Assembly: GCA_008632985.1 (NCBI GenBank)
Contig: QPGO01000050.1
Location: forward strand, 124,001-188,000
DNA: 64,000 nucleotides
Direction: 5' to 3'
Source of the DNA: Psammoneis japonica
Taxonomy: Eukaryota
The translations under genes were made by a program, and so were the position numbers. Within the stretch, counting starts at the first letter, position 1; every line of letters starts with the position of its first letter. Below the pieces are notes generated by a model that saw only the letters and a list, made by a program, of their open reading frames with translations, made no database searches and was not told the origin of the DNA. This document shows positions 1-40,885 of the stretch, one piece after another.

Positions 1-2560
1 GTAGATTGCACTGCTGCACACCCCACCCCCAGAAAACCAAGTTTGTTTCCAAAGTGTTGGCCACCAGTGGACTGCAAGTCAGGAACTGCACCCCCAGCCC
101 AACCAAAAACCACACGGTTGCCAAGAGGAGTTTCGTCCAAGGACACCACTTCAACTCTTTGGCTGGCATGTGTCTTGTTGTCACAGGCAAGAGGAGCAGC
201 ATCAATGAAAGTCAGCAAGCAAGGTTGGCTTGGAGAGGGATTTGAAGCTTTTGTGGCACGTGGTGTGTGCCAAATCAGCCAAGATTGAAACAGACATGGC
301 TCACAGTTGACAGCACACCCTTGCTGTGCAGTGCATGACATGGGAGCTGCTGAGGCTGGTTGCACAAGCAAGGGTGACAGCTTTGCTGGTGCTTGTCAGC
401 CCCCCACACAGCCTTTCCCTGTGGCCAAGATGGCAGGGTGCTGCTGGGGCCACCGGGCTGCACTGTGTGCACTGCCTGTCTCCAACACAGTGACCTGTCA
501 TTGCAGCTCTCTCTAAAATGTCAACGAAGCATGTGCACAGACACACAACAGCAATGAGCACTGTGGCAGCAATTGGAGAGCAGCAATGTCAGGCAGTGTG
601 ACAGCACATGGAGCACGCAACAGCTCATTGCTCTGGAGGGCCAGCACTCTCAACACAAGTTGAGCTCTCTTGTTTTGGATGCAGCGCAGCACTTTGCTTG
701 TTGAGGACATCTTCCAAAACCCTTTCAAAAGCATGAGAGAACAAAGTGATGGTTTTGTGCTGGTGCAGGTGCTCACTGGGGTTGCCGAGCTGGAAGGAGC
801 AATGGCACCATGCACAATGAAGAATGAAGGGAGTGTCAGTGGCAGTTGATGCAGCTGTGTGAAGATGCTCATCAACGAACAAAAAAAGCATTGCCCAAAG
901 TTTAGCTTGGGCCTTGATGAATGCTGCCACATGGCACTCACATGTGTCTGAGGTGCAACATCAATGGCCGGTCATTTCTCTCTGTGTGGATCACTTGCAG
1001 CTGACACCATCAATCATGTTGGTGGCTTCTGCTTGCCAGAATGAGCCCAACTTTGCATGGGCATTCACAACATGGTGCACTTCCATGGTGGGCTTCCATG
1101 GCTCTGACTTGACTCACGAAGTTTGGTGTTAGATGCTGGGATGTGACTGGCATCTGTCAGCCACTGGCATCACATGTCACACGCTGACATGCTTTGCAGG
1201 GCATGGCTCAAATGTGGTGCGCTGCTGGAGTTTGCGCAGCACATGCGTGAGTCTGGCTGCATGGGTGGGCTTCTTTTGTTGCATTTTCAAACTTTTTCAC
1301 ATGAACATCTTTTTCTTGGGGTCCAAGTCTGTGTTCATGTGCTCATGAAACTCAGTTTAATGGGTGCCAACACACAACACATCCCTCTGACAATGTCCAA
1401 CCAGCGCTGTTGTCAGAAATGTCTGCAGCACAAAGGATTTCATGTCTGGCATGGTTTCAAGGGCTTCATTGTCTCGTGGGAGTGACGCAAGCAACCTCTC
1501 TTTCTCAGCTGATCCAGCAGCTGATGTGACAGGACTTGGTGCTTTTGACTGGGTTGTTGCTTTTTTCACTTTTGTGTTTCTGTTGCTTCTCAGGGCCGGG
1601 AGCTCTGCAGCTTTCGTGCAACTGAAGTGGGGCAATGTGATTTGCCCCTCACTCCTTTTGACACACAGACATTTGCTCTGCAAGGTGCCACTCTCCTGCA
1701 AGTTTGCTCCTGCAAGATGACACAACACAGCAAAGCCATTGTCAGCAACAGCCTGACTGTTTTGGAGCCAACTTCGCGCCAGCACAGCAGTCTGAAGCAG
1801 CAAGCACAGTCATTGCCACAGCTCTCTGTGTGCTTTCCAGCTGCAAGAAACATTGCACTCAGATGATCACCACATGAGAGTTGAGAGACAAAAACTGCTG
1901 GAACCCTCAGCTGGACAGCTCACAGGCAAGTCTTTGTTGAGATGACACGCTGGCTCAAGAGAGACTCCATCACACTGTGAGGTGTTGGGCGCAACTCCTG
2001 CAGCAATGACGGGGGATCTTAGATTCACAAAAAGTGTGACTTTTTTTGCACTGAAGATTGAAAGGCTTTTTTCTTCAAAAATGTTGGCATCTCTGATTGC
2101 GGCAGCACCATCTGAGAGTGGCTGGTGGCAGAGGGGGGGCGATTGACACACACCACTGCTGCCATCAATTGAAGCAGCCATTTCAGGAGATGGCATCCTG
2201 TCTTTCTTTTTTGTCCTCCCCACTGAGAACTTTCACACCTTTTTGCAGCAGCGACCCCTCTTGTTTCCCACTTGAGTGGCGGGCGCATCAGGAGCAGAAG
2301 AGCCACTGCGCCTTGAAAGAGTCAGTGAAGAGAGCAGCAGCCACAGCCAGAATGAACAAGCACTTGAACCTCACATGCAGTTCAAGGGATGGAGAGTCCT
2401 CGGATGAAGACTTTGTAGCAGCAACCGCAGGGTCTTCTTTGTGGGCGTGTTGGGAGAGGCTGGGCAAGGGTTGGGAATGATCAGAGGAATCGGCGCTGAC
2501 GACGTTTGCAAGGTGATCCTGCCTTGGGTTGTTCGGCACATCTCCTGCGAGGAATGTTGT
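1..2560 (-). mobile_element. Degenerate repeat/transposon relic of unassigned family (TpA/CpG-erased), running off the window start
   Basis: Only 6 TpA in 1-2400 by eye, few CpG, strong TG/CA excess. Broken minus-strand reading frames start near ATG 2539. Composition matches the identified TE block at 16150-26700. No diagnostic domain recognised. Confidence 0.6.
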
Positions 2561-3019
2561 TCTAGAGATTCGATAAAAAATGTATGCTTCTTCATTTCTA
2601 TCAGAAACACAAGATGTCTTTCTAATAATTGGATGTGACTAAATCATGCTGAAATTCATTAATTCTACTATGATGCAAAAATGTCAATATAAATGTTCGT
2701 TGATGTCGCGACGAAAGCATGAGAAATTATGCTTTCGATTCCGTACCAGTGTAAAGAAAAGCGCGTTACTGATGCTGATTGACATCTATGGTAGTTTCTA
2801 TCCATGTAGGATCTAAACAATTATGTACAAAGACAGCTACGAGGGAGGTTGGACTTTTGTCCAGCCGTGTTACGCCTGTTGAGGGGCCGATCATTCATAC
2901 GGTAGGTCATAGGCTACGGCATTGTCTGCTGTTGCTGCTAAAGTAGACTCTGTCCTTCACATGTGTTGCGGTTTTAATCCCTAAAGAGTTCTTGCACGCT
3001 GTGGTAGAGAAGTCTCGAG

Positions 3020-13716: not shown

Positions 13717-14265
13717 GTTGGAAGCGAACGCTCAATAATAGTTCCGAAGCTTGCTTACTTAGTAGTAGTCGTCTGAGAGGCGAGAGGCAGCAGAGAGAGA
13801 AGTGAAACGTGAGCCTTCCGTTGTTCATCGGCAACAAAGCAACAAACGCGGCTCCGCCAGCCGAAGCCCGACTGCCGATCACAGCAACATACGGAACAGC
13901 AGTGAGATTCCCAATTCCAAAGTTATTTTTTGGCGGGAAAACATCTCACATTATGTGATAGTAATAGATACCGAAAATTATTTGATACTGCTACATAGCC
14001 ACAGATTTTTCTTTAGGCATTTGTATAGAGCTTTTTGTTGTTTTATAAACTTAGAAAATGGTTAATTAATTAATATTGCGGCCAAATTCAACGGAAAGAT
14101 TAGTTTATTAGATGCTGTTTGAAATTTATGATATTTTGAAATTTTTGTTTTATATACAATTAAGTGCGTATATATATAGCAACGCAGAACGGGATTTGAG
14201 ATCTGATCACATTTCCCGCGTTTTTCGTCTGCTGTTGCAAGTTGCAAACTAAGCACAGTAGAGGA

Positions 14266-16049
14266 ATGAACATGTTACGGCGAATGAGCCGGTCTCAGCC
14301 AAAGGACGGCATCAGCGTGTTGAGTCAGGAGTCTTCCGCGGTGTCATCGGAAGAAAGGGAGTTGTCTGAAGTGTTGGAGTGCGTCGAGAAAGAAATAAGC
14401 GACGCGAGGGCGAAGGGTGTGCACGTCGATCCCAACTGCATTTTGCGAATGACCCGTTCGGCGGTAGAAGCGGCAACGGACGACAAAAAACTCGTGGAAC
14501 TTGATGCATTGCATAAAGTACGAACGGTTGGAGATCATTCCACCCTTGTGGATGTGTTAAAGGAGGACGACGCGTTTCAGCTTAGCATTACAGTGGAAGA
14601 TTCTCCCGAAAGATCGAAGGGGACAAAAAGTCTTGGCACACCCACCAAGATTGATGATGTGTCTTCATCAACATCAGTTGATACGGAATATTCTTCGGGA
14701 TCATTGTCCGTGTCATTCATTGATACGGACTCTCTGCTTGACAGTCAGGCAGGCGGGTGGAAGACCTCCGAGGTAATTCAATCATTCCACCTGATGAATA
14801 TCAGACGTCTGACACTCGGCAGACTCCCGAAACATATTTCAGTGATGACTGCGAAACGGAGGGTGCGCACCGGCAGGAGAATACTGCTATTGAAATAACA
14901 CTTTCTTCTTTTCAGAGAGTCGAGGGTGATGCTCCTGTCGAACCGAAAGAGTCTTCAGAAGAAAGCTGTGAAGTCCTTCTAGCGACGTTTTTGGAAAGCC
15001 TGGAGAATCATGAAATATCGGTGTTGAAGGTTGAAGACCCCGAGCTCGATGAACTAAACATTGCTCTTGCAAATACAGTGGTCAAATCAACGGACGTAAC
15101 GGATGACACTGACTTTGTTTCCACCAACGACTCGAGCAAACAGAATGAAACAAGTAAAGAAACGCTCAACGTTGTATTTGTCGATGACAAAGTCCAAGTC
15201 GTGGACCGTGCGAAAAACAAGTTTGTAGAAATGGATCTCAAACAGCCTGGTGACAGGAAGCATCGTAGAGCTTTTTCTCGAACCTCCTCGAAGAACAAGT
15301 GGAAGCCTCTTGTCTCGATGAAGAAGCTGAACCGACGAAAAAAACGAAACAGGGCCCCCCTTGCTCACGATGCGTCTGAAGTCGATGTTCATGAAGTCGA
15401 TGATGATGAAGTAGAACCTTCCGAAACAGAAGAGTCGTCAGCAAAAATGCATTACGTTGTAACTGTAAGTACTCGCAGCTCTGTTACGGCTCACCAAAAC
15501 CAAACAATTCTCACGCCTCTGTCGCTTCTCGACTTCTTTTAAGTGCCACCACAAGACAAAGAAACCACGCGGCAAAGTCAGGTTTCCACCCATTGAAGAA
15601 GAGGACTACGATCTCCGGGATTCTGAATACGACTCTGATTACAGCGTCGGAGATGATTCGGAAACGGATGAGGTTGATCTCTTTGATCTGTTTGTTGAAG
15701 CGCTCGTCCAAAAGATGGAGCAAATGTGTACCCAGAAAAAATCGAGGGTAACGAGATCTACGAGGAGTCGTCACCGCGACAGGAACGCATGGCACGGTGC
15801 AGTGCTAGAGAGACGACAGCAGTCTGTTATCGACACCTTCGGAAGCAATTCACTTCTATATAAGTCAGGCATTCGTCCAGAAGAAAATCGCTTGGGGCAA
15901 GAGATTCATGTAACGTAGGCTACAATGCTACTAACATCGACGATAATGATAGCAGAGCAACAGGGTCATCCTTGACGGGACAGGACTCTGTTGTTTATGA
16001 TTTGCAGGTTGATGAAAGAACCGGAAGTCCAAAGCTTTTGCGCATGTGA
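14266..16049 (+). CDS. Hypothetical acidic/low-complexity protein, paralog of 27026-28529; intron 15465-15543; apparent frameshifts
   Basis: Shared blocks SVLSQESS..LSEVLE.VEKE, FQLSITV, DKVQV.D..N K.VEM.L, DLFDLFVEAL.QKME, TGSSLTGQ, and the same intron position. Confidence 0.65.
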
Positions 16050-16134
16050 TTGTGTCAGAGTTATCTCTCTACTAAACGCAGAGTTTTTCGGTTCATGAGG
16101 CCATATTATAGAGATTATAGATGGGAGCCTTAAT

Positions 16135-18090
16135 CACTGTAGCTCGCAAAATTCGTAGATGCACAGTTAGAGTCCATTTCATGTATAGATGCCCACAAGG
16201 ACTGGCTGCATTCCTTTCTGCGCTGACTGCATCCCATGCATTGCACTCGTCCAGATGCACCCCATGCTTTTAAGACAGAGACCACTTGGAAATGAAAGGA
16301 AAAATTGAAAAATGACAGGCGTGTAATTTTTTTCGACAATTGGAAAGGAGAGGATGCACAATTGCCAGCCAAGACATGATGAAACTTCTAAAAGGCAGTG
16401 GGTGCCAATTGGGTGTTTGTCCAAACTCGAGAAGATTCTGCTGCTCAAATCCCCAAGGCCAGGCACACATGGATGTCAAAGGCATGCCCAATTTCTGTTT
16501 GATGTGCAAAAGCAAGTTGCACAAGAAAAAGTGGACAAAACATCAGAGCACAGCACAGCTCTGATGGCCATGGGCTCACTCAATTGAAAGACAGTGGGCA
16601 GTGTTGCACTTGGCAACATGAACTTTGTTTGCAAGGAAAATCTCACAAACGGTCAATGCCCCAATTCCACAGGTGCACGCAGATGTGGCAGAGATGGTGT
16701 CGTGCTGCATGGTTCTTCCAGAAAATGCAATGTTTGAATGACAGCAGAGATTTTGGCTGCTGTGTGATTCCCAAGCGAGCTCCTCCAGTTGGTGGCAATC
16801 AGAGAGCAAAACCCCAGAGTTGCCCTCCATCTGGAAATCATTGTTGCTCTTGTTCAGAGCTGATCTGCACTTGACAAGAAGCCTGTGTTCTCAACAAGTG
16901 AAATCTTGACAACATGAATTTTGTGCACATTTGCAATGCAATGATTTTGAATGTTGCTGTGTCAACAATTGAGCCAATCATGAAAGCTGGAGATGACAAT
17001 GAGTGGCACATGCAACTGGCCAGCTGACACAGCTCATTTCCAATGACAATCGCACAAATCGATCTCATTGGCTCTCTTTTTCATTGGCTGCATGTCGCTG
17101 ACAATGCCAACAATTTGATTTGCACATGTTGCAATTTGGGTTTCTGGCAATGTCAGCTTGATGCAGCTGCATGTTCTCATCCTCCACTTTTTTGCTCCCT
17201 TGTCTTTGCTCTTTCCTTTTTTTCTTTGTTCTTCCAGCATCTTTCACTGTCTGCATGACATCTTCTTGTTCTTGGCTGGCTGTGCTGGCACCACCATGTC
17301 ATGCTCCAACTGGCATCTACACTTCAACTGGTGTCATGCTCCCATCACTTGTCTTTCAACAATTGTCAGCTTCTTGTTCTGGTGGTGTGCATGTCGCTCA
17401 TCCTGCAAGGGAGATCAAAGCAATGCCTGCCAGAAGAAATCAGAGAAATCATGAGTTTTGCATGTTTGATTTGGCAGCTCTCTCACAATCATGCTGCCTC
17501 CACTGACACTTGTGCTGCAACATTGCAGCATTGTGTTTCCTGCTTGCACAACTCACTTTAATTTGTCTGGGTGTCATGGATGAGTGAAAGTGCCTGTTTT
17601 TTTGCATTGTTCTGAAATCTGCTTGCTTTTGCAGACACTTCTGATCTTTCATTTTTCTCATTGCTTTTTTTGTTTGGGTGTGTGCAGCCCTTGGTTTTGT
17701 TGGTGCTTTCCCACAATGCATGATTGCACACAGGATGCTTGGGCACATCCTCTGCATTTTGTGTTGTTTTTTGTGTGGCAGCAATGATGCATTTTTTGGT
17801 GCAATGCCAAGCTGCCAGTGGGCTTGGTGGTCATTGTTTGCATCATTTTGCTGGCAGCATTTTTTCAAAAGCCTTTCATTTTGTGTGCTCTCAAAGTCTG
17901 TTAAATTGTTTGGGTTGACTTGAATGAACCAGTCAATTGGTCTTTGTTGTCACAGCATTTCAGTTGGTGGGCCTGTGAGCTGTCATTTGCTCAGCAGCTG
18001 GACATTGAACATTGTTTCAATCACATGCAACACATCATCTTTTGTCAAAGAAGCTTTTTGTGCCATCTCAGTTTTCACAAAATTCAACTT
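16135..18090. mobile_element. Degenerate repeat DNA of unassigned family at the left end of the TE block
   Basis: Switch to TpA/CpG-poor, TG/CA-rich sequence from ~16200. No intact ORF. Begins CACTGTAG, a possible TIR end, but no partner was found. Confidence 0.5.
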
Positions 18091-19950
18091 CTCTAAACTC
18101 CACACTGAAAGCCACCACCAAGCCAACAGCTGCAAGCTGAGGGCACTGGGCTGACAGTGTCCAGTGGTGTGTCCCAGGTGACACTTTCAGAGCTGTGGCT
18201 GAGCATTGCAAGGTTGATCTTGTGGCATTGTGCCCCTGTGTCATGTCATGCAAAAGAGTGGCAGACTTGAACTTGCAAACTCACTCCAGAGTGAAAGGAA
18301 GATCTCCCCATGAGACAGTGCCCACCAAACCACAAAACTGCCCACAGAAGACACTGGTGGCAGCATCTGGTGGACCTGGGGTGAGACTTCAAGAGCTGTT
18401 GTTGTGCATTGCAAGGTTGATCTTGTGGTGTTGTGGCAGCACCATGTCATCTTGTCCCCAAGAACAGGAGCAGACTTGAACTTTCAAACTCCAGAGTGAA
18501 AGAAGGGCCCCATGACAGCACCAACCAACCTGACCATCATTGCAAGATGAGGGCACTTGAAGTGTGTGGTGTGCCCCATGTGACTGCTTTAAGAGCTGTG
18601 CTTGAGCATTGCAAGGTTGATCTTGTGGTGCTGTGGCCTCACATCATGTTGTCCCCAACAGCAGACAGCAGATGAGTCTCCATGCAGAGACCATCACAGG
18701 AGCCAAAAAACTGGTGTCATGATGTCGGTGCTGCATGCTGTCATTGTTCTTGTGAGCCAAGTGGCTTGAAAGCAAACTGCATCGCACAACGCGCATGGAA
18801 CCAAGAGCACACACAATATGTGTGACAAACTAAAATCTTGTTCAAATCCTGTCACCAGCAGACTTGACTTTCCCAACTCCAGGAGTGCAGGGATCCCACA
18901 CCAGTGGCACCAACCAACCCAACAACTGACACCAGCAGAGGGCACCACTGGTTGTCTTTGGTGTGCCCCAGGTGACACTCCAACCATGGTTGGCTGAGCA
19001 TTGCAAGGTTGATCTCATGCGGCATTGTGGCCCTGTGTTGTGCTCTGCCCAATGACTGCTGCAGACTTTGACTTCCAAGCTCCCAAATGCAGCAAGTCTG
19101 ACCAGCCAATCTAACAACTGCAAGCTGAGGGCACTGGTGGTCTGCAGCAGATCCCAGGTGACAGTTTAAGAACTTTGGCTGGATGCTGCAAGGTTGCATG
19201 TTGTGGTGTTGTGGCCCCATGCCACCTTCTCCCCAACAGGAGTGCACAGACTTGAGCTTCCAAGCTCTGGAGTGAAATGTTCCCATGACAGTGCCAGCAG
19301 AGGACACTGAAGGTGTCTGCTGACAGACCCCAGGTGACACTTCAAGAGTTGTTGTTTGGGCACTTCAAGAGGTTGTTGGCACTGCGGCATTGTGGCTTGT
19401 TGTCACCTTGTTCCCAAACAGGAGGAGCAGACTTGAGCCCCCAAACTCCAGAGTGAAAGGACCCCATGACAGTGCCAACCAACCTGACAATTGTTGGGCA
19501 TCATTGCAAGGTTGACCTTGTGGTGCTGTGGCTCCATGTCTCTTCAGCCCCACAGGAGCAGACTTGAACTTGTTCCAAACTCCAGAGTGAAAGGAGCCCA
19601 CCATGACAGCACCCACCAACCTGACAACTGCAAGCTGAGGGCATTGGTGGTCTCTGGTGGAACCAAGGTGGCAGTTTGAGAACTGTGGTTGGATGTGGCA
19701 AGGAAGGTTGATGTTGTGGTGTTGTGGCCACATGTCACCTTGTGCCCAACAGCAGCAGACTTGAACTTCCAAACTCTCAAGTGAAACAACCCTGCGACAG
19801 TGCCAACCAACCCAACAACTGCAAGCTGAGAACATTGGCAGCCTCTGCTGGACCAAAGGCAACAGTTTAAGAGCTGCAGCTGGACATCGCACTGAGGTTG
19901 ATGTTGTGGTGTTGTGGCCCCATGTCACCTTGTCTCCGCCAGGAGCAGAA
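18090..19950. repeat. Degenerate tandem array, about 9 units of ~185-203 bp, with an unrelated ~170 bp interruption (~18680-18850)
   Basis: Recurring GCATTGCAAGGTTGATCTTGTGG-like motif at 18203, 18406, 18606, 18998, ~19183, 19501, ~19700, ~19890. Recurring GCAGACTTGAAC...AAACTCCAGAGTGAAA-like motif in each unit. Confidence 0.88.
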
Positions 19951-19959
19951 ACAAGAATG

Positions 19960-22700
19960 TGTGCACATGGCTCATCATCAAGTCAATCTGGACAGCATGA
20001 CATGTCAACTGCAGCTCCCACTTTCCTCAACAATCCAAGGATGGAGTCAACAATGCATCTTCCTGCCTGTTGGCACAGCAAGGTGGTGCATTCATTCCAG
20101 CTCTGGGCACAATTTGATGTTTTTTTTTCACATTCTCTGCCTTTTTTGCAAATGCTGCCATCTTTGTCAACACAACCTGCTTGCTCTTTGGACTCTGGTG
20201 CTGGAGGTGTGATGTGATGCTTTTTGTCACAGCACATCTGAAAATGATTGGCAACTCTGACAAATTCAGCAATGATGCAGGCCCTTTGCCATTGGGAAAA
20301 GAGCCATTGGTGTGGAAGGTTCCTGTGCTGGTGACTCTCCAACCAACTGATTTCCTCCAACATGTGTTTGTTCTACAGCGGCACCTGGCACAGGCAAAAC
20401 TGACTGCAACAGCGCCGCAGCTCCACGGAAGCTTGGGCTCAATGGGTTGACTGTGTGTGCCAAAAGATTGACTTTGGAGTCTGGATTCCATGACTCAATG
20501 TTCTTGTTGAAGCAAACCCAGAGCACCTCTCAGCAGCCAGCCATTTCTGGCTCCAGCCAGAAGTGTTCCTCAGTTCCACATTCTCTGTGCTGTGGCAAAC
20601 ATCACAATTTTTTCTCAATGTGGCTGTCATGTTCCATGTGGAATGACATGATTTGCAAGTTGCCATGGGGTGGTGTGCGGTTGTTTTTTTGCAACTTCTC
20701 TCAACTTTGTGGCTGCAAAAGTGGCACCAATTCATGATGTGAAGCAGGTGTGACATGTGTGATGAAGAAAATGGCATGCTTGATTTCACAATTGCAGCAT
20801 TTGATCCATCAAAATCAGTGCTCATTGTTCATGTGTGATTTTCTCCCATTGTGGCATCATGTTCCAGCACCTTTTTCCCAGCTTCTGCTCAGCTGCATCT
20901 GTGTCAACAAAATTCTGAACATTCTAGAAAATTGGGTGCCAACTTGTCTCATGACCCCAACTTGTCTCATGACCAGCTGTGCAAAACATGGTGTTGCACA
21001 TCCATCACACTCAAACTCAAGGACCACAATGATTGGCAAGCGCTGTTTGTGGCATCAATCAACATTGTTTGCCTCTCCTGGGTCATGTTGCACAGCAGAA
21101 TCACATTCAATGTGTCGCTCACTTTGACCCATTCAACCATGCATTGTTCAATGACGGAACCATCTCTCAACAAGCTTGAAAGTTCAATGGTCACTTGAAT
21201 GCTGTGGGTTGTGTGTGTTGAGTTAGAGAGCTGTCAGCACCATTTTGGTGGAGCTGCAAGACAGCACGTTGGCAACACTTGTCATGGTGCACCCTCTTTT
21301 GATGTTTTCCAGCAGTGCTTTTTGCAGTTCCCCCACAAAGTCCAGATGGAGCTGATGTGTGTGGCACTTGTTCCCCCAGACAAAAATGCAGCAGGAGCAC
21401 CCCAAAATGCAGGCAATCAAATGGAAGGTTTTCCAACCACATGAACAAATTCTCAACAAAATCAAAACTCACATGATGAGAGATTGCACATTTTGAAGCC
21501 ATTTCAACCCTCATCTGTGGACATTGATCACTGCAGAGAAAATGCCAGAGATGTGCAATTTTCAACAGGCAACCACAATGAAATCATTCAAGAATCAAGC
21601 GACAGAACAAAGCACAGTTGATGTTTGTGAAAATTGTGTGTTGGTGGAAATTGCAGCCACAAGTGTGAAAATCATTGTTGTTGTTCATTGTTCTTCTGTA
21701 AAGTGCAAAAACATCATGTTGCAGATGCCAACATTGCTTCTCACTCCCATGCCAAAATTGCTGCCTGAAGCAGCTTGAGCACCAGCCCCATGTCATGGAG
21801 ATCTGCAGGATGACATTTGGCCATGTTGCCACAACAGTTTTCCAAGAAGCACTGGGGGGGGAGGGGGGGGGGGGGGCACACCTGACAATCACAGCAGCCT
21901 TTCCAGGTGCAGCAGTGGCAACAAGGCATGGCAAAAGCTGATCATCTGTTTGCACAGCTTTTGTTTCCAGGAGGGGGGAGCCAACAGTTGCAGCACCACT
22001 GTCTCCAATTGGCCCAGTGCTGCTTGCTGCCACCTTGCACATGCCTGCTGACATTGCAAGTGGTGCACAATGCCACACACCTTGCTGAGCCTTTTTTTCC
22101 TGCTTTGCTGCTCACAAGTTGCAGAATGGCTGCCACCAGTGCATGCCATCTTTTGCTTTGGAGCCAGCCCTTGCTGCTGCAAAGCAGAAGCAAGGTCATG
22201 TGTTCTTGGAGCTTCTCCAATTCATTTGTGAAATGGCTGCTTCCAAGAGCAAGCGTCTTGCTCCTCTGCTCTGCAATGCTGTGACAAAGGCTTGGTTTCT
22301 CAAAAGCTGTTGAGCTGGCTGAACAAGAAAGGAGCTTCAGCTTCTCATGCTGCTGCACACCAGTTTGGGAATGTCAGGGCACATCATTCCAGGTGCTCAC
22401 CAAAGAAACAAAGGGCCTGCAGCACTTTGTCAACAAAGTGCCATTGTCATTTGTCCTTGAGTTGTTTGGCAGCACAGCACATTTTGGCTCAAAAGTGTGC
22501 TGGGCCCTGCTCTCTTTTTCTCACAGGGTGCAGTCCAGGTGGGTTGCACCAGCACACTCCACGCTCCTTGATTGGCTGCTGCTGTGTGGACACCCCCCCC
22601 CCAGCACCCCCTCCAGCCACAGCAACTTTGCTGTCATGCATTCATTGGTGCCAAGCTGTTCAAAAGTGCCTTTTTCTTGCTCAAAACCACCATGAAGTCT
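19960..22700 (-). mobile_element. Mutator-like (MULE) DDE transposase relic, pseudogenised
   Basis: Ordered minus-strand motifs MLIDATN..SLSVMD (~21060), STDFD....I...MP....H..LLH (~20820), NKNIESWN (~20500), then a Cys-rich possible SWIM remnant (~20080). Limits approximate; 21600-22700 assigned only by contiguity. Confidence 0.65.
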
Positions 22701-22749
22701 GCCAAGCCAAATGGACATCATTGGAGTTTTTTGCTTGGCAAGAGTTGGG

Positions 22750-25700
22750 TGTCTGGGGTGACAGAAGTGGGTGGTGGGTGGTGACTGGTGGTGGGAAAAT
22801 GGTGCACAGCTTGCTGGGCGGTGAAAAGAAAAAAGATTGGCCAATGGTGCAGACAGACAGCTGTGTGGCAGATGCATTGGTTAAAGTTGGGTGTCTTCAA
22901 GTCTGCAGAGGAGTTGCTGATGGTTGGACAAATGGGTGGAGAGGGCGATGATGCCAATGTTGAGGCTGAGGATCTGAGAGGCCCATGGAAGGGGTGCAGG
23001 AGAGATGAGATGGGAGTCACCAAAGTGGTCAGGGGAGATTTTGTTTCCAGGCAATGTTGGCAGCCACTGGCAAGAAGGTTGCGGAAGGTGCCAGAAAGGA
23101 GTTTTGGCATGCTGAAAAAGAGGCTTGGGAGTGGGGCAGATCAGATGGGCTTGTCCAGGGTGGTTTGGGTGGAAGGGGAGGAATGGAGGAGGATTGAGCA
23201 GCGGAGTGACCAAAGAAGAAAACATGAAAGTGGCACCCAATGCCTCCAAGGTGGTTGATGGTGAAAGGAAGAAGAGGTGAGCCAGCATTGTTGGTGGCAT
23301 TGATGATGTTGGAGCAGCAATCTGCGGATGTTGTGCAGCCAAGCGCTTGTCCCATGTGCTGCTGAGGTGAGCCTTGGCAAGTGGGATTTCAGGGGTGGGC
23401 AAACAGGGTGCAGGAGGTGGGGGAGCTGGTGGGCACAGCAACATTGATGGCAATGAACTGGTGTGTGGGGATGGGGCATCAGGAGGAGTGGAGTTGGGGA
23501 TGAGCTGTGCTCCAATGTTGGCAGAGCATTTGAGAGGGGGGTCAGTGAGGAGTCTGGTTGGATCTAGATGTGCTTCTTGTTGACAATTGCAGCACAGAAC
23601 CATTGAGAGGGCCAAGGTTTTCAATGATTGTGTGGAGGGTGTCATGGAGATGGTTTGACAGGGAGCCTTTGCACATTTTGGAGCAGGTGAAAGCATGGCC
23701 ACCACATGGGTTTGGTTGAGCATGGCCACAGGGACATTCGGCGTGGAGAAAATCAGAGGAGATGGTTGGAAGGCAGAGCTTGCAGAGAAGAAGGAGGGTG
23801 AAAAGGGCAGAAGGGAGTCATCAATTGGGTGGGTGAAGTCTTGAGAGGGAGTGAAGGCACAAACTTGCAAGGGGAGAGAGCAGGGATGGAAGAGCTGGTT
23901 GGATGGCAGGGTCTGCAAGAAGTTGAGGGAGAGTGTTGTGTTTGTGATGGTGAAGATGGAGCTGTTGGGAGAGACCATGGAGGTTGTGGTGCTTGATGGG
24001 AGTCAGAGGCATTTGAATGATGGGGAGTTGCATTGGAAGAGGACAGGGGCACAGTGCTTGAAGATGGTGCAGAGGAAAAGGTCAGAGCATGGGTTGGACC
24101 AGGAGCCAAGGGTGGTGGATTGGCTCAAGGGGAGGTGAAAGAGCTGGTTGCCAGTTGGCGGCATTCCGTGTGTGGCGCAACGGATGGAGTGGGCAAGGGA
24201 GGTGAGGATGGGATGGCAACACTGGAAATGTCTTGGTGTCCAATGCTGCCAAGAGAGACTGGGAGGATGGCAACAAGATGGGTGGCAGTTGGAAGAGGTG
24301 CAGTTGTTTTGGTGAGACAAGCAAGAAAAAGGAGGGAGTGGCCAACAATGGCATCCATAAAAGGGGGTGCCCATTCAAAAGGGCTGGGGCAGTTGGTGTT
24401 GTGTTTGAGATTGCAGCAGATGTCCACTGCAAGAAAGTGTGAAATGGACGGCATTGTGCATTTCCGAAAGAAGGCACTTTGAGTTTGTTTGTTGGTTGGT
24501 CGAGTGGTGAGGCAGCGGAGTTGTTTGGCAAAAGTGTTGGCTTTGTTGGCAAGAAAGTCAGCAGCAAATTCAACAGAGCCAATTGGTTGGCCAAGAAAGT
24601 GGATGCTGGCAGCAATCTTGGGTTGTGTGTGTGGGTGGTTGGTTGGGTTGAGGAAAAGCAGGGCTTGATTTGAGGTCTCAGTGTCGGCGTTGGTGGGAGA
24701 GAGCTTGTCAATTGGAGATTGGCTGTTGATGAGTGCAAGGATTTTGGTCTTGGACCTGTTGAGTTTGATGCCACATTGGGGTCCCAAGTTTTTGTGGGAA
24801 CTGTGGGAAAGTGGAGAAAGGAAGAAAGGCATGGGTGTTGTTGATGCAAGACGAGGTGGCCAATTTTGAGTGTGCTGGAAGGCATTGGTGGAGTTTGCCA
24901 TTCTTGATGGGTTTGAAAACACAAGCAAGGATGAGGCAGGAGAAGGCTGGACTTCAAGGACAGCCCTGTGTGAATCCTTTGTGTTGAAAGAAGGAGGGCC
25001 AATCAAGGTGGTGGTCTTGATGCCAACATGTGTTGGGATCTTGGCACAGGATGTTGAAGAGAGGAAGAGTGGGTTTGTGGTTGTCGGAGGATGCAAGGGT
25101 GTTGTGGAAGGCGTTGTGAGAGCATTCGTTGAAACAGTTGGTGAGGTCAAGCAAAACCAGGGCTTTTGCAGGGGTGGTGCCTGGGTCAAAGAAGCATTCA
25201 ATGTCAGTGCAGGTGGTGTTTTATTTGAGGCAGTCCAGGCCGCCTTTGACACCAACACCAAATTGGCTGAACAGGAGGAGGTCAGCTGCAAATTTGGCTG
25301 CCAAAAGGAACATGACCAGTGTTCCAAGAATTTGATGAAGAGCAGTGCAAACACCAATGGGGTGGAGTTTGGAGAGGTTCATTTTGTCTTTGTGAAGGGC
25401 GAGGAAAGAGTTGGGTGCAAAGGTTGGCTTGATCGAGGGCAGGAGGTCAGCAGCAAGGATGAGGTCAAGGAGATGTTTGAAGGTTGGGAGGCAGGGGCAG
25501 GAAGTGGCTGTTGGTGCAGAGCAATGGCAAAGGGCACAGGCTTTGAAGAGGTTGGCAGAGTTGGCAAAGGGGCCTGGTGCTTTGCCGGGGTTGGCATTTG
25601 GCAAGGGCTTTGCAAAGTCAGAAGTTTGTCTGCCAGAGGGGTGCGATGGAAGTGGTGGGTGTTTGCATGGTGGGCACAGCTTTGCCACTGGAGCCATGCA

Positions 25701-26140
25701 TTCTGGAGTGAGAGAAGCAACAGGGAGGGAGGAGGTGGTGCGGGTGCAGGCTGCAGAGAGGTCACTCACATCAGCAGCAATTTAGGCTGAGTGGGTGCAG
25801 AGAATGAGTCGCAGAAATCTGGGGGCTTGTCAGAGATGGTTGGAGTGGGCACTGCTTGAGAAGAATGACAGAGGGAGCAGATGGAGCCATTGCAGAAGAG
25901 GAAAAGGTGTTGGTTGATGATGGTTGAGATTGGGATCTTGGAGTCGGGGCTTTAAGAACAAGGGAAGAGGGCTGAAAATTTGAAGAGAAAAAAGAGTTTG
26001 AAGAAAGGGGTGGAAGAAGTTTGCCAGGATGGGAGGGGCTCATCAGGGTGTTCACAAGTTTGAGATGCATTGAGCATCCACCAGACCAAATGATGAAGGG
26101 CATGGGTGACTTGCAGGTGGGCTGAGGATGGGAGCTTGTG
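22750..26140 (-). mobile_element. Non-LTR retrotransposon relic, RLE-type (CRE/NeSL-like): RT, CCHC knuckle, restriction-like endonuclease
   Basis: KAPGP, LALHKD..KLHPIGV..ALHQI, QFGVGVKGG, LDLTNCFN, GFTQGCP, CINN (=YIDD), GIKLNRSKT, FLGQPIGS, LPVSLGSIG, CPCG...P.GxH.FTC, SANIG...IAINV. Frameshifted throughout. Confidence 0.85.
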
Positions 26141-26164
26141 CCAAAGGGAGGCACAAAAGGGAGG

Positions 26165-26690
26165 ACATGCTTGTTCACAAGTGCGACACAGACCACTGAG
26201 AGGGCCAAGGGTCTCAATGATTGTGCAGAGGGTGCTGTCAGGGAGATGGTTTGACAGGGGGGCTTTGTGCATTTTAGAGCAGGCAAAAGCATGGTTGCTG
26301 CATGGGTCTGATTGAACATGGCCACAGGAACATTCGGCGTGGGGAGAAAATCGGAGGAGATGGTTGGAAGGCGGAGCTTGCGGAGAAGAAGGAGGAGGGT
26401 GAAAAGGGTGGAAGGGAGTTCATTGGATGGGTTGAGTCTTGAGAGAGAGCAAAGGCATGAACTTGCAAAGGGAAAAAGCAGGGGTGGAAGAGCTGGTTGG
26501 ATGTTGGGGTCTCTGCAAGAAGTCAAGGGAGAGTGCTGTGGTGTTTGTGATGGTGAAGATGGAGCCGTCGGGAGAGACCATGGAGGTTGTGGTGATCAAC
26601 AGAGTGTCGGAGGGATTCGAATGATGGGGAGTCACATCGGAAGAGGACAGGGGCGAAGTCTGCTCAGAAGAGTTGGGGGCTCTCTCATTT
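26165..26690 (-). mobile_element. Second fragment of the same retrotransposon family (zinc-knuckle region), matching ~23575-24065
   Basis: Visible nucleotide alignment, e.g. CATGGCCACAGG.ACATTCGGCGTGG and GTGTTTGTGATGGTGAAGATGGAG in both places. Confidence 0.85.
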
Positions 26691-26711
26691 TTTCCCTTCT
26701 CCACTGGCCAG

Positions 26712-26775
26712 TCTAGAGTTAGCTAGCTACTGCTAGCTCTAGCAGCTAGCAGTAGCTAGTGGCTAAAGTAGAGTG
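26712..26775. other. CTAG/TAG-rich island at the right edge of the TE block
   Basis: TCTAGAGTTAGCTAGCTACTGCTAGCTCTAGCAGCTAGCAGTAGCTAGT directly follows >400 bp without a TpA. Confidence 0.7.
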
Positions 26776-27025
26776 GCACTGGGCGCACAACAATGAGCTG
26801 AAACACGTATGACAGGCAGACAGGTGCCGGGACCCAAAAAGAAATCATACAGTTTTCCAATGCTGAAAATGTGTATATCCCAACGGAGATTATACTTTTA
26901 TCCACATGCTTAGACTTTTCATATTTGAAATTTTGAAATTTTTGCCAACGGAAGAAGATACCGTTGTCCCACCCTGGCAAGAAGAACAAAATTTCCATTT
27001 TGCGTGGCGGAGGGTTAGACAGAAG

Positions 27026-28529
27026 ATGCTACGACGGCGATTCCATCGGTCTCACCCATGGGACCACAGAAGCGTGTTGAGTCAGGAGTCTTCCGTTGTG
27101 TCATTGGGAGAAACAACGTTGTCTGAAGTCTTGGAGTCCGTCGAGAAAGAAATGGGCGAGGGGAGGGCGAAGGGGGGGCATCATGTCGATGACGACTACA
27201 TTCTACAGAGAACCCATTCGGCGGCAGAAATATCAGCGGATGAAAAAAAACTTTTAGAACTTGGTACACCTCACAAAGTAAGTACATTTAGAGATGACTC
27301 CACCTGGGTTGATGTGAAGAAAGAGGACGGAACGGGAACGTTTCATCTGAGCATTACCGTCACAGATGGTCCGAAAAATACCAGGGAGCCAAGTCCCGGC
27401 ACGTCAGATATACGCTGGCATGATAGCAATGCTTTTGAAATGACTCCATCTTTTGCGGAAGAAATCGCTGATACCGATCCATTTGTAGTTGACAAGGTCC
27501 AAGTCAAGGACTCGTTGAACAACAAGCTTGTTGAAATGGAGTTAGAAAAGACTGACCGCCAAAAGCATCGTGATATGTTCTCTTCCACGAAGCTTGGTGA
27601 TTTCCATAAAGGAGGAAATGTTGGAGGGCAGTCTACTATGGCGCATTTGAAGAGGAAGGACGAAGGGTTTCAGCTGAGCGGTACAACGAAAGTTGCTCCC
27701 GAAAGAACTACCAAGATTTCAAGTCCCGGTTTGTCAGATATAGGCCGGTTCGATTGTAACGCCTTTGAAATGACTCCACTTTTTGTCAAGAAAATCGCTA
27801 GTACCGACACATCTGTAATCGAAAGAGTCCAGGTCAAGGACTCGGCCAACAACAAGATTGTAGAAACGGAATTCGAGCAAACGGGAACCCATAGGCAGCG
27901 TGATAGGTTCTCTGTGAGACCTGCAATTGGCAAGCGGGAGCCTTTCTTTTCCATGCGGAAGTTGAACAGAAACAAAACGAGAGACAATTCTCCTCCTGTC
28001 CAGGACATTCGTGAGATCAACACTCATGATATAGACCCTCATGACGACGAGAAACTCATAAAAGTTCCGGTAGAGCCGACCCCAAGAAAGACACGATACA
28101 TTGTAATCGTAAGTGCTTGTTGCTACCAGGACTAGCTTTGTTTGTCAGGTAACTCTCACTCCTCCCATTTTTCTCCTCGCTAAGCGTCGCAAAAAGAAAG
28201 GGGGATACGACTTTCGAGATGAGGAAGACGATTCAGAAATGGAAGAGTATGATCTCTTTGATCTCTTTGTGGAAGCGCTCATTCAGAAAATGGAGCACTT
28301 GTGTTCAACGGACGAGAAGTCTGTTCCACCTTCAACCCGAAACCCCCCAAACAGGGATTCAGCGCTCCTGATGGACTTGCACGACGTTCTGCTCGACAAA
28401 TTAGGTATTGCAGTGGAAGAAGATCGCTTTGCGTGTGAGATACATGCATGCTTTGACGAAAATAGCGACACAACCGGATCCTCGTTGACTGGACAGAACT
28501 CTTATGTTTCATGGGTTGCGGCTCATTGA
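27026..28529 (+). CDS. Hypothetical protein, paralog of 14266-16049, with an internal ~80 aa duplication; intron ~28109-28184
   Basis: Open frames in both exons. Internal repeat F.LS.T...SPG.SDI...D.NAFEMTP.F...IA.TD..V...VQVKDS.NNK.VE occurs twice. Confidence 0.75.
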
Positions 28530-28819
28530 AGATCTTGTTTAACTGTTGCGAATTGATGTTACTATGACTTAATTCCTTTTTCTAATGCTTAAGTGTCTTC
28601 AGTAGGTGATGCTTGTGTCCTTTCTCCTGCATTGCTCTTCTCGAGACATAATCAAGTGGGAAAGGCTGCATCTACGACGAATGGGACTCTTGCACTACGC
28701 ATTTCTATGTGTACTTCGACAGTGTTGGGCCTACCGGTATCCTCTTGAGGTTTAGCTCTAGCGTGCTGTAATTGTAGCTCAAGAGTCACTCAACATGGGG
28801 ATGTCTGAGCTCAAAGGGG

Positions 28820-29020
28820 CCCTAGCTACTCTCTCCACTACTAGTAGAGGGCGTAATCTAGAGAGTAGTAGGCCTAACGGTACCGTTAGCTACTCTAGCT
28901 AGGGCCCTACTAACTCTAGCTAGAGCTAGCTACTAGCTATAAGTACTTGCTACTTAGGCCTCTAGAGGACTACTCGACGACTCTCTCTCTCTACTGTAGA
29001 GAGTAGATAGAGAGGGCTAC
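28820..29020. other. CTAG/TAG-rich palindromic intergenic island
   Basis: Dense CTAG/AGCT/CTAC words. Perfect palindromes CTAACGGTACCGTTAG (28874-28889) and TAGGGCCCTA (28900-28909). Confidence 0.7.
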
Positions 29021-29262
29021 ACTTCCGTCCGTCCGTCCGGACGTCCAGCTCCCAACATCAAGGTCTGTACTTGTACCGGTACACCGCGCACCAACTCTGA
29101 TGGCGAGGCCGCGCAGGCGCGCCAAGGCGAGCACACCGAACACATCGCGACTCCTCGCGACGATGACAAAGCCACACAGCAAAAGAGCTACCTATTTCTA
29201 CTTCAGAGAGGGGACGCAGCTATCCATAAACGTGGCTTTTGAAGCATACAAAAGACCAAATC

Positions 29263-40796: not shown

Positions 40797-40885
40797 ATGG
40801 GGCTTCATACCGTGTTGGTTGTGGTTTACTTATGCTTCTGGTACTTTATGGCAGTTCAGGGGTGTCATGACCCCCCCTTGAATGT
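40622..40885 (+). repeat. Direct repeat copy 1 (~260 bp): deformylase 3' end, spacer and degenerate CK2 3' end
   Basis: Aligns by eye with 43288-43546. Confidence 0.85.

Follow-up and report, generated by a model that had tools for sequence, protein, structure and literature searches.

In RIP, C is converted to T at CpA, which creates TpA and leaves the affected repeats with a high TpA/ApT index; strand-coordinated runs of mutations result from single events on duplicated sequence, and the process depends on RID/DNMT4 and on the sexual phase. Adenine deaminases of the TadA/ADAT2 type act on a tRNA substrate in which the target A directly follows U and, in the bacterial case, is itself followed by C. 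To our knowledge, no natural chromatin-targeted DNA adenine deaminase has been established in any eukaryote. TpA>TpG/CpA hypermutation has been measured directly by Mettrop et al. (bioRxiv 10.64898/2026.01.13.699255) in mutation-accumulation lines of Bigelowiella natans. According to the preprint, 230 of the 231 mutations in two hypermutable regions of integrated viral DNA were of the types A>G and T>C, every one of these 230 at TpA; the target is single-copy, the process keeps to DNA that is silent or of foreign origin and leaves host genes alone, the de novo rate is ~1000-fold over background, and the process was active in some lines only. The same source reports 124 clusters of TpA-poor, CpA+TpG-rich windows in the B. 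natans genome, with low-TpA genes enriched in RT and DDE domains, and names an ADAT2-like deaminase as an unproven candidate enzyme, its authors favouring adenine deamination. In diatoms, repeat blocks have been reported to be CpG-methylated in domains (DNMT5a of P. tricornutum, PMC9998398; the methylome of C. cryptica, PMC5124317).

Here we present the analysis of a 64,000-nucleotide stretch of DNA (the window) from Psammoneis japonica, a diatom-like stramenopile. Its initial annotation proposed a mutator that runs opposite to RIP and knew of no described system of this kind; the latter statement no longer holds, since the process has been measured in B. natans in the preprint of 2026.

Two TpA-erased domains and their contents

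Between positions 16200 and 26700 (10,501 bp) the window contains 24 TpA where its base composition predicts 667 (observed/expected ratio, O/E, 0.04) and 76 CpG where 624 are predicted (O/E 0.12), together with an excess of CA (O/E 2.0) and TG (O/E 1.64). The rest of the window exhibits O/E values of 0.58 for TpA and 0.94 for CpG, and if its densities are taken as the expectation, ~440 TpA and ~575 CpG should be present in the segment (Poisson P ~3e-152 and ~5e-152, respectively). These exact counts bear out the initial annotation, which had estimated about 24 TpA and described CpG as scarce, TG/CA as excessive and the flanking genes as normal in both dinucleotides; destruction of TpA with gain of CpA is, as it had claimed, the opposite of RIP. 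It had also described the translations as almost free of Tyr and rich in Cys and His, in good agreement with the six-frame frequencies of 0.03% Tyr (2.53% in flank DNA), 5.97% Cys (3.42%) and 5.07% His (3.26%), which are an arithmetic consequence of the loss of TA and the gain of TG/CA.

The TpA-erased domain (block 2, Table 1) occupies the whole intergenic space between two tandem genes, which are paralogs of each other (14277-14614 matches 27034-27379 at 74%), and these spliced genes of normal TpA content come within ~100-300 bp of the erased DNA. The genes of the window are intron-poor. Their products have no near-identical counterpart among recorded proteins, and the placement as diatom-like is a loose one, based on one match to a named diatom (34% identity) and one to an ochrophyte (63%). 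Both edges of the domain are sharp, TpA and CpG being normal up to ~16389 and ~16430 on the left, and from 26714 and 26566 on the right. A second domain with the same signature (block 1), overlooked in the initial annotation, lies at the start of the window; at its edge CpG is back at ~2250 and TpA only at ~2563, and no similarity between the two blocks was found by sequence comparison. The loss of TpA outreaches that of CpG by ~300 bp in block 1 and by ~150 bp in block 2, which indicates that the two processes are separable. The numerical criterion of the B. natans preprint, as given there, selects 12 of the 64 1-kb windows, all of them inside the two blocks (ten consecutive ones at 16001-26000 and two at 1-2000), and none of the 52 others.

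Table 1. Features of the window discussed in the text (coordinates in the window).
Feature	Position	Strand	Remarks
Block 1, second TpA-erased domain	1..2562		Same signature; cut off by window start
Left flanking gene	14200..16126	+	Spliced in run X2 (X2 records; intron 15465-15543); normal TpA and CpG
Block 2, TpA-erased domain	16390..26713		21 TpA remain
Block 2, CpG-erased core	~16430-26565		Slightly smaller than the TpA-erased domain
Sub-block L	16400..18070		T-rich, full signature; TA 1.8/kb, CG 5.4/kb, TG 130/kb, CA 112/kb
Tandem satellite	18075..20015	+	~190-200-bp monomers; 11 monomers or pieces
Sub-block M	20016..22500		Full signature; TA 1.6/kb, CG 4.4/kb
Degraded retroelement reverse-transcriptase (RT) gene	23032..25781	-	Colinear over several frames
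Fragment of second copy of same retroelement	26170..26654	-	3' part only; direct repeat of 23576-24050, 83% identity
GCTAGC/CTAG-rich short repeat	26714..26770		11 TpA in 56 bp; exact point of TpA return, right edge
Right flanking gene	27008..28567	+	X2 record; GT..AG intron 28109-28184; normal TpA and CpG

The total number of pyrimidine-purine (YpR) steps per kb is conserved between the blocks and the flanks. The flanks contain 40-43 TA, 55 CG and 142-144 TG+CA per kb (sum 239), and four of the five sub-blocks contain 1.6-3.6 TA, 4.4-12 CG and 236-242 TG+CA (sum 247-251); in the fifth (R) the sum is 213.

The gene-free blocks hold a satellite, the remnant of an RT gene and ~4 kb without assigned identity; neither sub-block L nor sub-block M matched Pfam or the RT HMM. 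On the satellite very many other contigs of the public run X1 pile up (summed depth to 16,885 vs ~60 in the flanks), from which it follows that this satellite family is abundant in the genome of run X1. The RT gene, whose sense strand is C-rich and G-poor, was recognized by a local HMM with E-values from 1e-55 to 5e-11, HMM positions 38-225 being found at 25224-25781, 228-314 at 24957-25220, 383-573 at about 24206-24793, 643-701 at 23824-24081, 705-776 at 23545-23817 and 862-929 at 23032-23388. Its homologs number 115 at a threshold of E<=1e-3, 36 of which reach 1e-10, and RVT_1 is the only domain in 8 of the 10 homologs tested. The retroelement is likely of the non-LTR type; neither an endonuclease domain nor a poly-A tail was identified in its sequence. 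The second copy, in which HMM positions 665-729 match ~26341-26538, is 5'-truncated, since only its 3' part is present. Among the labels given to this DNA in the initial annotation, a tandem array and a retroelement are thus retained, and a MULE transposon is not: not one of the 110 ORFs in both blocks that are 70 aa or longer has a credible Pfam match at E<=1, and a search for terminal inverted repeats returned none; the inverted pairs seen were 4 weak ones, 20-31 nt long and 71-83% complementary.

The signature is present in five unrelated sequence units, which supports the earlier supposition that it is a property of the locus rather than of a single element. The description of it as restricted to repeats applies to the satellite and the retroelement, which are indeed hit, but it is too narrow, since parts of the block match only one X1 contig (at >=80% likeness) and since the target reported in the B. 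natans preprint is single-copy.

Contigs of run X1 bridge both edges of block 2, at 13899-18222 (10 differing letters) and 24806-30000 (7), with a depth of 56-66 as in the flanks and 99.7-99.9% agreement with the window; the signature is therefore no assembly quirk, run X1 being possibly the same sample as the assembly and hence not a fully independent check. On some platforms base calls can be wrong where DNA is heavily modified, which would favour an artefact of sequencing, base calling or assembly at modified bases. Alternatively, the composition might be native to the elements, e.g. owing to selection against TA and CG words, since avoidance of CpG and UpA with an excess of CpA and UpG is a known selected signature of RNA viruses (PMC3829696). 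However, the k-mer contigs of X1 reproduce the sequence over both edges with undiminished depth, where a strand-dependent miscall would have split or halved them, and an O/E of 0.04 is far outside any selected bias. Moreover, the signature is common to five unrelated sequences, TG<->CA doublets distinguish repeat copies from one another, and conserved RT residues are altered in the predicted directions beside frameshifts. Both explanations are thus largely refuted, and we consider them extremely improbable.

Direction and context of the changes

The initial annotation had supposed a DNA-level conversion of TpA to TpG/CpA beside the decay of CpG, and this is supported by the conservation of YpR steps and by four independent polarisations, namely those of the satellite monomers, the duplicated element end, the window against the public run, and the residues of the degraded RT. 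The satellite contains 39 YpR-dominated columns, of which 20 mix TG and CA, 14 are uniform, 3 have TA with TG and CA, and 2 have CG with TG or CA. In the duplicated element end, the copy at the edge and the one in the interior differ by 13 TG<->CA doublets, and the edge copy exhibits CG against interior TG/CA at 9 sites and TA against TG at 1 site, which it has kept owing to its position at the edge of the block. Among the 19 listed events inside the block by which the window differs from X1, there are 2 TA<->TG, 6 CG<->TG/CA and 3 TG<->CA doublets, and the first and the last of these classes hint at recent activity. In the RT remnant, 90 of the 257 conserved columns differ, 63 of them by a single step, and tabulation by context revealed that 36 of these single-step changes fit TA/CG>TG/CA (14 TA and 22 CG), compared to 12 for a matched RpY control. 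The changes are of types such as Tyr>Cys/His, Thr>Ala and Arg>His/Gln, the 14 TA-type codon sites including Tyr>Cys three times and Tyr>His once; all 5 consensus Tyr have been lost (to Cys in 3 cases, to His in 1 and to Ser in 1), and His now stands in place of 5 of the 14 consensus Arg, Gln in place of 3 and Cys in place of 1. The polarised TA cases thus comprise 3 satellite columns, 1 site in the duplicated end, 2 window/X1 differences and 14 RT codon sites, and the polarity of CpG is documented at the 9 sites of the duplicated end and by the 22 CpG>TpG/CpA changes of the RT remnant.

Neighbouring sites mutate independently and on either strand. In contrast to the strand-coordinated outcome of RIP, no clustering of TG or CA outcomes was detected by the runs test in 5 of 5 sub-blocks (z from -0.9 to +1.3), a test that is diluted by the ~60% of TG/CA steps that are ancestral.

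The 26 surviving TpA, on which alone the following context rule is based, are not a random sample of sequence contexts: 20 of them are YTAR, compared to 456 of 2130 in the flanks (21%; Fisher P=3e-9), and the corresponding Y__R context accounts for only 24.7% of the CA/TG sites in the blocks (binomial P=3e-8). The surviving fraction amounts to 0.36 in TTAA, 0.17 in the A/G class and 0.06 in CTAG, and to at most 0.03 with a 3' pyrimidine on either strand; it is additive over both strands. TAG (0.063) is 4-6x better preserved than TAC (0.010) and TAT (0.015), and the predominance of YTAR among the survivors implies a rate order of TAC~TAT > TAG > TAA, the process being ~3x or more faster when the A precedes a pyrimidine. 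This 3'-neighbour rule (TAY > TAR) is derived here and may represent a new detail beside the account given in the B. natans preprint. AA has an O/E of 1.21 in block 2, with AAA/TTT at 1.08x the flank level, which makes the previously suggested Pol eta-like A:T mutagenesis (WA, i.e. TA and AA) unlikely, and AT is barely altered (O/E 0.81 vs 0.90 in the rest of the window), which makes a modified adenine, if the modification is placed at ApT, an unlikely candidate as well.

The context rule bears also on A-to-I hyperediting at the level of RNA, by which an ADAR-like enzyme would act on double-stranded repeat RNA that is then reverse-transcribed and re-inserted. The block does include a retroelement, and ADARs favour a 5' U (PMC10661471), a preference shared by the process described here; their motif is UAG according to the same source, however, and this preference for a 3' G is contradicted by the good preservation of TAG. 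The signature runs unbroken over the satellite, the RT element and other DNA and spills beyond the ends of the elements, tandem monomers of one locus differ by TG<->CA, and A>G is found on both strands. ADAR-type hyperediting is therefore already disfavoured, and its probability appears minimal.

Candidate mechanisms and enzymes

We regard it as probable that two context-specific transition processes have come near completion in a chromatin domain that lacks genes and is presumably silenced. The first would be the ordinary decay of methylated CpG to TpG/CpA, and the second a TpA>TpG/CpA process, with A>G on either strand, of the same kind as the local hypermutation reported for B. natans in the preprint. 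The TpA process would strike single sites independently on either strand and would act on any sequence in the domain, be it the satellite, the retroelement with its truncated copy, or sequence without known match, sparing the transcribed neighbour genes to within ~100-300 bp. As both processes preserve the pyrimidine-purine step, every YpR step would eventually become TG or CA. The data demonstrate the signature with its edges and polarity, the context preference and the mutual independence of adjacent sites; that the domain is silent or methylated, and which enzyme acts on it, is inferred.

Like RIP, the TpA process would ruin mobile or duplicated DNA in place by context-specific transitions at the level of DNA, and what remains are blocks of skewed composition that end abruptly next to normal genes; unlike that of RIP, its signature includes stretches without a second X1 copy at >=80% likeness. 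As in the decay of methylated CpG known from diatoms, loss of CpG to TpG/CpA is confined to blocks of repeats with gene-rich DNA in between; such decay, however, covers only about half of the gain of TG/CA and cannot remove TpA. With the B. natans process, as far as the preprint describes it, the one seen here shares the restriction to TpA, with TpG or CpA as the product depending on the strand (AA and AT are not depleted here), the confinement to particular regions in huge contrast to the neighbouring DNA, RT-bearing sequence among the targets, and the long-term footprint of TpA depletion with gain of CpA/TpG in clusters of 1-kb windows. On the other hand, the host is a diatom-like stramenopile here and a chlorarachniophyte there, the process is saturated here (Rho_TpA 0.02-0.06, compared to 0.45 in the B. 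natans NCLDV insert), the targets are a satellite, a retroelement and other DNA with no recognisable virus, and erasure of CpG is superimposed, CpG having 0 occurrences in the available text of the preprint.

As to the enzyme, our best guess, prompted by a tRNA substrate that likewise presents A after U and, in bacteria, before C, is a TadA/ADAT2-type adenine deaminase that would act on transiently unpaired DNA. TadA/ADAT2-3 and ADARs alike convert A into I (read as G) and target an A after U/T. In the TadA motif the A is followed by C (Table 1 of PMC10661471), which fits TAC as the most depleted word in the blocks. The adenine preference reported for amphioxus ADAT2 is for GAA and hairpin loops and not for TA (PMC10354150), which counts against the ADAT2-type reading.

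A single deaminase of dual specificity, ADAT2-like and with A as well as C in DNA as its substrates, could in principle be responsible for both losses, which coincide almost exactly in the two blocks; amphioxus ADAT2 has been reported to deaminate C (at TCG) as well as A in DNA (PMC10354150). However, the loss of TpA extends 150-300 bp beyond that of CpG at two edges, the edge copy of the repeat retains 9 CpG and no extra TpA, and the survival of CpG betrays no preference for TCG (0.10 for TCG, 0.096 for ACG). Furthermore, the hypermutation in the B. natans preprint is TpA-only, and in the RT remnant the two changes run in opposite sense-strand directions (TA>TG 11 vs 3, CG>CA 19 vs 3; Fisher P=2e-4), the bias having been read through amino-acid changes and hence with biased detection. 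A common enzyme is accordingly quite unlikely.

A point against adenine deamination is that the same strand directions, viewed from the pyrimidine side, represent changes to the pyrimidine of one strand in both processes, and would agree with a thymine-centred lesion no less than with it. In dinoflagellate DNA, TpA steps are enriched in 5-hydroxymethyluracil, and 5-formyluracil mispairs with G. It might thus be thymine and not adenine that is attacked, by JBP/TET-type oxidation to 5-hydroxymethyl- or 5-formyluracil in the RTA context of silent chromatin, with mispairing to G and T>C as the result. TA>TG and TA>CA would look no different if T>C had occurred on the opposite strand, and the CpG and TpA changes of the RT remnant lie mostly on the antisense pyrimidine. 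The strand bias may, however, be a detection artefact of reading amino acids, no such bias of CpG was found in the duplicated element end (5 vs 4), and the authors of the B. natans preprint prefer adenine deamination; oxidation of thymine thus seems to us unlikely, albeit worth keeping in mind.

Returning to adenine deamination, we tentatively propose, as a possibility that is far from certain, that at least two SAR branches (the stramenopile analysed here and the rhizarian of the preprint) share, in the TpA mutator, an old system of chromatin-directed genome defence, run by a tRNA-wobble-type (TadA/ADAT2-like) deaminase that would be recruited to 5mC- or H3K9me-marked domains and would act on any silent DNA, satellites included, until no TpA is left. 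What has been observed is the footprint of a process first described in 2026 in B. natans, which here has reached saturation in another, unrelated lineage. If the proposal is true, eukaryotes would have a second system resembling RIP, one that runs from AT to GC, and the T-A-pyrimidine rule would betray its ancestry in tRNA editing.

Extent and authenticity of the TpA-erased domains

Between positions 16200 and 26700 of the window TpA occurs exactly 24 times, the number estimated by eye in the initial annotation, whereas base composition predicts 667 (O/E 0.04), and CpG, also described there as scarce, occurs 76 times, with 624 predicted (O/E 0.12); the excess of TG/CA noticed together with these losses corresponds to O/E values of 2.0 for CA and 1.64 for TG. 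Outside this interval the O/E values are 0.58 for TpA and 0.94 for CpG, and the density in the flanks would predict 440 TpA and 575 CpG within it (Poisson P ~1e-152 each). A 500-bp scan revealed that the edges are sharp and that the beginning of the window (block 1, positions 1-~2560, incomplete because the window start cuts through it) carries the same signature as the large domain (block 2). At the level of single positions, normal TpA ends at 16389 on the left of block 2 and resumes at 26714 on the right, the corresponding limits for CpG being ~16430 and 26566, while in block 1 CpG is back at ~2250 and TpA not before ~2563. There are thus two zones of normal CpG density, 2250-2562 and 26566-26713, with one TpA where ~12 are expected and none where ~6 are expected, respectively, and therefore the TpA process extends beyond the CpG process, by 150-300 bp at two edges. 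Since, in addition, the copy of a repeat located at the block edge has retained CpG but not TpA, the two losses are separable.

The point at which TpA returns on the right of block 2 coincides exactly with a short GCTAGC/CTAG-rich repeat (26714-26770), whose 56 bp contain 11 TpA, the majority of them in the slowly mutating CTAG context; this repeat might act as a boundary element, mark where the inserted DNA ends, or be present there by chance. Near the edge of block 1 there is a minus-strand ORF of 103 aa (2291-2599) without a Pfam match, and at 4410-5222 an ORF with two tandem Rdx (SelW-like) domains (Pfam PF10262, E 2.8e-42), with a CxxC motif in each, an unusual doubled form of a small redox protein.

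The six-frame translations of the block are, as had been noted, nearly devoid of Tyr (0.03% vs 2.53%) and enriched in Cys and His, owing to the dinucleotide change itself. In both blocks TGA is the sole possible stop codon, which results in long ORFs that overlap in several frames and reach 417 aa. Five ORFs are at least 250 aa long, where simulation gave 1.5 on average (95th percentile 4), a borderline excess that is partly due to a degraded reverse transcriptase (RT) gene, and most of the long ORFs of both blocks are artefacts.

Three public sequencing runs were found, all from one sample and study. Contigs built from one of them (X1) and matched to 12001-30000 cover 13899-18222, differing from the window in 10 letters, and 24806-30000, differing in 7, and therefore cross both edges of block 2; their depth across the block edges is 56-66, equal to that of the flanks. 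Strand-dependent misreading of modified bases is ruled against, because it would split or halve k-mer contigs. The block signature is not an artefact of assembly or reading, an explanation contradicted by several results, although X1 possibly derives from the same sample as the assembly, and so backs the sequence without being independent of it. The transcriptome-like run X2 shows splicing in the flanking genes (introns 12778-12859, 15465-15543 and 28109-28184), which identifies them as genuine expressed genes with normal TpA, in agreement with the initial description. Inside 16201-27000 X2 provides no cover save a trace in one bin, a blank that is not evidence of silence.

Contents of the blocks

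Block 2 fills the gap between two tandem paralogous genes, with X2 transcripts ending at 16126 and starting again at 27008; the paralogs are 74% identical at the DNA level over ~340 bp (14277-14614 vs 27034-27379).

Features of block 2 and of the genes on its two sides (positions in the window)
Feature	Position	Strand	Remarks
Left flanking gene	14200-16126		product acidic and Ser-rich, like that of the right gene; no Pfam match
T-rich part	16400-18070		no assigned identity
Tandem satellite	18075-20015		~190-200-bp monomers
Part without assigned identity	20016-22500
G-rich part (retroelement)	22501-26560
RT gene	25781 down to 23032	minus	colinear, frameshifted; local HMM of 19 homologs, positions 38-929, E 1e-55 to 5e-11
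Second-copy RT fragment	~26341-26538		3' part only; local HMM of 19 homologs
Right flanking gene	27008-28567		tandem paralog of the left gene, block 2 lying precisely between the duplicates; product acidic and Ser-rich, no Pfam match

The tandem array proposed in the initial annotation is thus a satellite. Its family is abundant in X1, where very many other contigs stack on it (summed depth up to 16,885; 1357 contigs matched to 12001-30000 in all). Metagenome scans for it found 0 loci in the portion scanned, and hence yielded no environmental copies for polarisation. Pfam searches with 14 and later 110 block ORFs gave no credible match, and no terminal inverted repeats were found, so the suggested MULE is unsupported; the two blocks share no sequence. 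A word-indexed protein search with the 417-aa ORF likewise returned no match, but exhaustive HMMER searching with the same ORF recovered 115 homologs (E<=1e-10 for 36), and RVT_1 was the sole domain in 8 of the 10 homologs tested. Together with the HMM map, these RT homologs confirm that the retroelement is genuine; its assignment to the non-LTR class is likely, rather than proven. The second copy of the 3' part of the RT gene explains a direct repeat of 83% identity (23576-24050 / 26170-26654).

The satellite and the retroelement are both affected. In three bins (16201-16800, 22201-22800 and 26401-27000) the summed depth of X1 equals that of a single contig, and the TpA process is not strictly repeat-dependent. 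The gene-rich part of the window contains other short direct repeats of 87% identity (40622-40867 vs 43288-43534; 62608-62710 vs 62713-62817) with normal dinucleotides, so that duplication alone is not enough for the signature here. Contigs of 33-81 nt from the third run (X3, tiny, 0.16 million letters) match satellite positions 18665-18775 at 80-90% on both strands; if X3 is a small-RNA library, as it may be, this would suggest that the domain is targeted by an RNA-guided mechanism.

Polarity and sequence rules of the changes

The flanks contain per kb 40-43 TA, 55 CG, 70-71 TG and 71-73 CA, i.e. 239 pyrimidine-purine (YpR) steps, and four of the five sub-blocks contain 1.6-3.6 TA, 4.4-12 CG and 236-242 TG+CA, i.e. 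247-251 YpR steps (213 in the retroelement sub-block). The number of YpR steps is therefore conserved, and ~95% of them are now TG or CA; only about half of the gain in TG/CA is attributable to the loss of CpG. Comparison of related copies agrees with this picture. Among 39 YpR-dominated columns of the satellite monomers, 20 exhibit a mixture of TG and CA and 14 are uniform, three combine TA with TG and CA (e.g. TTTAAG / TTCAAG / TTTGAG), and two combine CG with TG or CA. The two copies of the duplicated element end (the repeated 3' part of the RT gene) differ by 13 TG<->CA doublets; of the sites that read TG/CA in the interior copy, 9 are still CG and one is still TA in the copy at the block edge. 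The 19 listed in-block differences between the window and X1 include two TA<->TG (20375, 25265), six CG<->TG/CA and three TG<->CA doublets, which indicates that the process has been active since the split of these haplotypes or strains.

The RT remnant differs from its homologs in 90 of the 257 columns where these agree, and among the 63 differences explicable by a single step 36 fit TA>TG/CA (14) or CG>TG/CA (22), whereas a matched control (AT/GC>GT/AC) accounts for 12. All five consensus Tyr residues have been lost (3 Cys, 1 His, 1 Ser), the 14 consensus Arg include 5 replaced by His, 3 by Gln and 1 by Cys, and the commonest predicted types are Thr>Ala via T|ACN>T|GCN (5), Gly>Ser via C|GGC>C|AGC (4) and Ile>Val (3). 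Mutation has brought the blocks to an end state fed by TpA and CpG alike, and the original reading of a conversion of TpA to TpG/CpA accompanied by CpG loss is, on the evidence of the satellite, the duplicated end, X1 and the RT polarity, essentially correct. A native composition of these elements, or RNA editing followed by retro-copying, are both contradicted by several results. Of the causes considered at the outset, the WA signature of Pol eta-like mutagenesis and a modified adenine (at ApT) were set aside on composition; GC-biased gene conversion was likewise discarded, since it is unable to drive CpG>TpG simultaneously.

Surviving TpA are concentrated in the context YTAR, which accounts for 20 of the 26, while the flanks have it at just 456 of their 2130 TpA (Fisher P=3e-9), and back-mutation from CA/TG is rejected as their source, as just 24.7% of CA/TG sites are in the Y__R context (P=3e-8). 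As each TpA presents one A per strand, survival can be expressed by the two 3' neighbours: it is 0.36 for A+A (TTAA), 0.17 for A+G and 0.06 for G+G (CTAG), and at most 0.03 once either neighbour is a pyrimidine. Survival is additive over the two strands, and the order of rates is TAC~TAT > TAG > TAA. The spacing of the residual TpA is somewhat regular (coefficient of variation 0.65, 21 intervals). A runs test, diluted by ancestral TG/CA steps, found no strand-coordinated clustering of TG vs CA in the five sub-blocks, the order along the DNA being random in all five (z -0.9 to +1.3); therefore sites are struck singly, on either strand. On the sense strand of the RT remnant TA>TG (11:3) and CG>CA (19:3) run in opposite directions (Fisher P=2e-4), a direction read through amino acids and hence subject to biased detection, and the duplicated end has no CpG bias (5:4). 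The plus strand of the retroelement part (22501-26560) has G 0.379 vs C 0.144 and TG 125/kb vs CA 77/kb, an asymmetry for which native composition, transcription or replication asymmetry, and a pyrimidine-centred lesion are candidates.

Known systems, candidate mechanisms and implications

We know of no cellular process described before 2026 that removes TpA from DNA. The initial annotation regarded the process as undescribed; the literature searched contains a sole paper on such a process, a 2026 preprint on Bigelowiella natans (Mettrop et al., bioRxiv 10.64898/2026.01.13.699255), and none of it describes a loss of TpA in diatoms or other stramenopiles. According to the preprint, two integrated viral regions mutated in mutation-accumulation lines at ~6e-7 per site per generation, with A>G/T>C accounting for 230 of 231 mutations, every one of the 230 at TpA, and with activity in just 11 of 15 lines; 1-kb windows poor in TpA and rich in CpA+TpG form 124 clusters in the genome, RT and DDE domains are over-represented among its 324 low-TpA genes, an ADAT2-like deaminase is put forward as an unproven candidate, and CpG is not mentioned. 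The numerical criterion given there is passed by 12 of our 64 1-kb windows, all 12 inside the two blocks. The locus is a further case of a process already described, not a new category. Its targets are not confined to viral inserts, as it affects a satellite and a retroelement here, in a second, distant lineage, and the process has reached saturation and coincides with CpG decay.

The window does not come from B. natans and, judging from protein similarity, its DNA appears to belong with diatoms/ochrophytes. Introns are few in its genes; named protein matches include the ochrophyte Phaeothamnion at 63% identity (one among 120 matches listed) and the diatom Cyclostephanos at 34% (one of 11), and no protein in a collection that included annotated public proteomes was more than 40% identical to the cyclin encoded in the window. 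In diatoms, repeat DNA is reported to be CpG-methylated (PMC9998398 and PMC5124317), in C. cryptica as methylated repeat regions of up to 30 kb alternating with unmethylated gene-rich DNA (PMC5124317).

We consider it probable that ordinary 5mC>T decay has operated here alongside an A>G process specific to TpA and similar in kind to that of B. natans, both confined to a silent chromatin domain. Methylated CpG would decay by 5mC>T in this domain, and the TpA-specific process would act in the same domain; that the CpG decay is co-extensive suggests that targeting follows the silent or methylated state of the chromatin. A single deaminase acting on both A and C, which would account for both losses at once, is disfavoured, since the TpA and CpG edges differ and the B. 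natans spectrum is TpA-only.

TadA and ADAT2 act on the A that follows U33 in tRNA, and an adenine deaminase of this type is a candidate enzyme. The TadA motif has C after the target A (PMC10661471), which fits TAC as the most depleted word. ADARs, which according to the same review prefer UAG, do not fit, as this preference is at odds with the context rule found here. The sole DNA-active ADAT2 on record is described as preferring GAA and hairpins (PMC10354150). Alternatively, and less probably, the lesion may be centred on thymine, with oxidised T mispairing with G, which would leave a footprint identical to that of A>G at TpA.

The algal group to which the window appears to belong is distant from chlorarachniophytes and ecologically dominant. 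What the locus adds is this second distant lineage, the saturation, the coincidence with CpG decay, the satellite as a target, the 3'-neighbour rule and the independence of sites. Such blocks generate false long ORFs and Tyr-free, Cys/His-rich proteins that mislead gene callers and domain searches, and standard RIP indices will miss them. The window represents the end state of the kind of process that the preprint captures in real time in one chlorarachniophyte. The rule TAY > TAG > TAA is testable and, together with independent strikes on the two strands, constrains the enzyme. A second lineage allows for a comparative search for deaminase paralogs or thymine-modifying enzymes that are present with the footprint and absent without it, and the search for the enzyme and for the targeting signal thereby becomes tractable.
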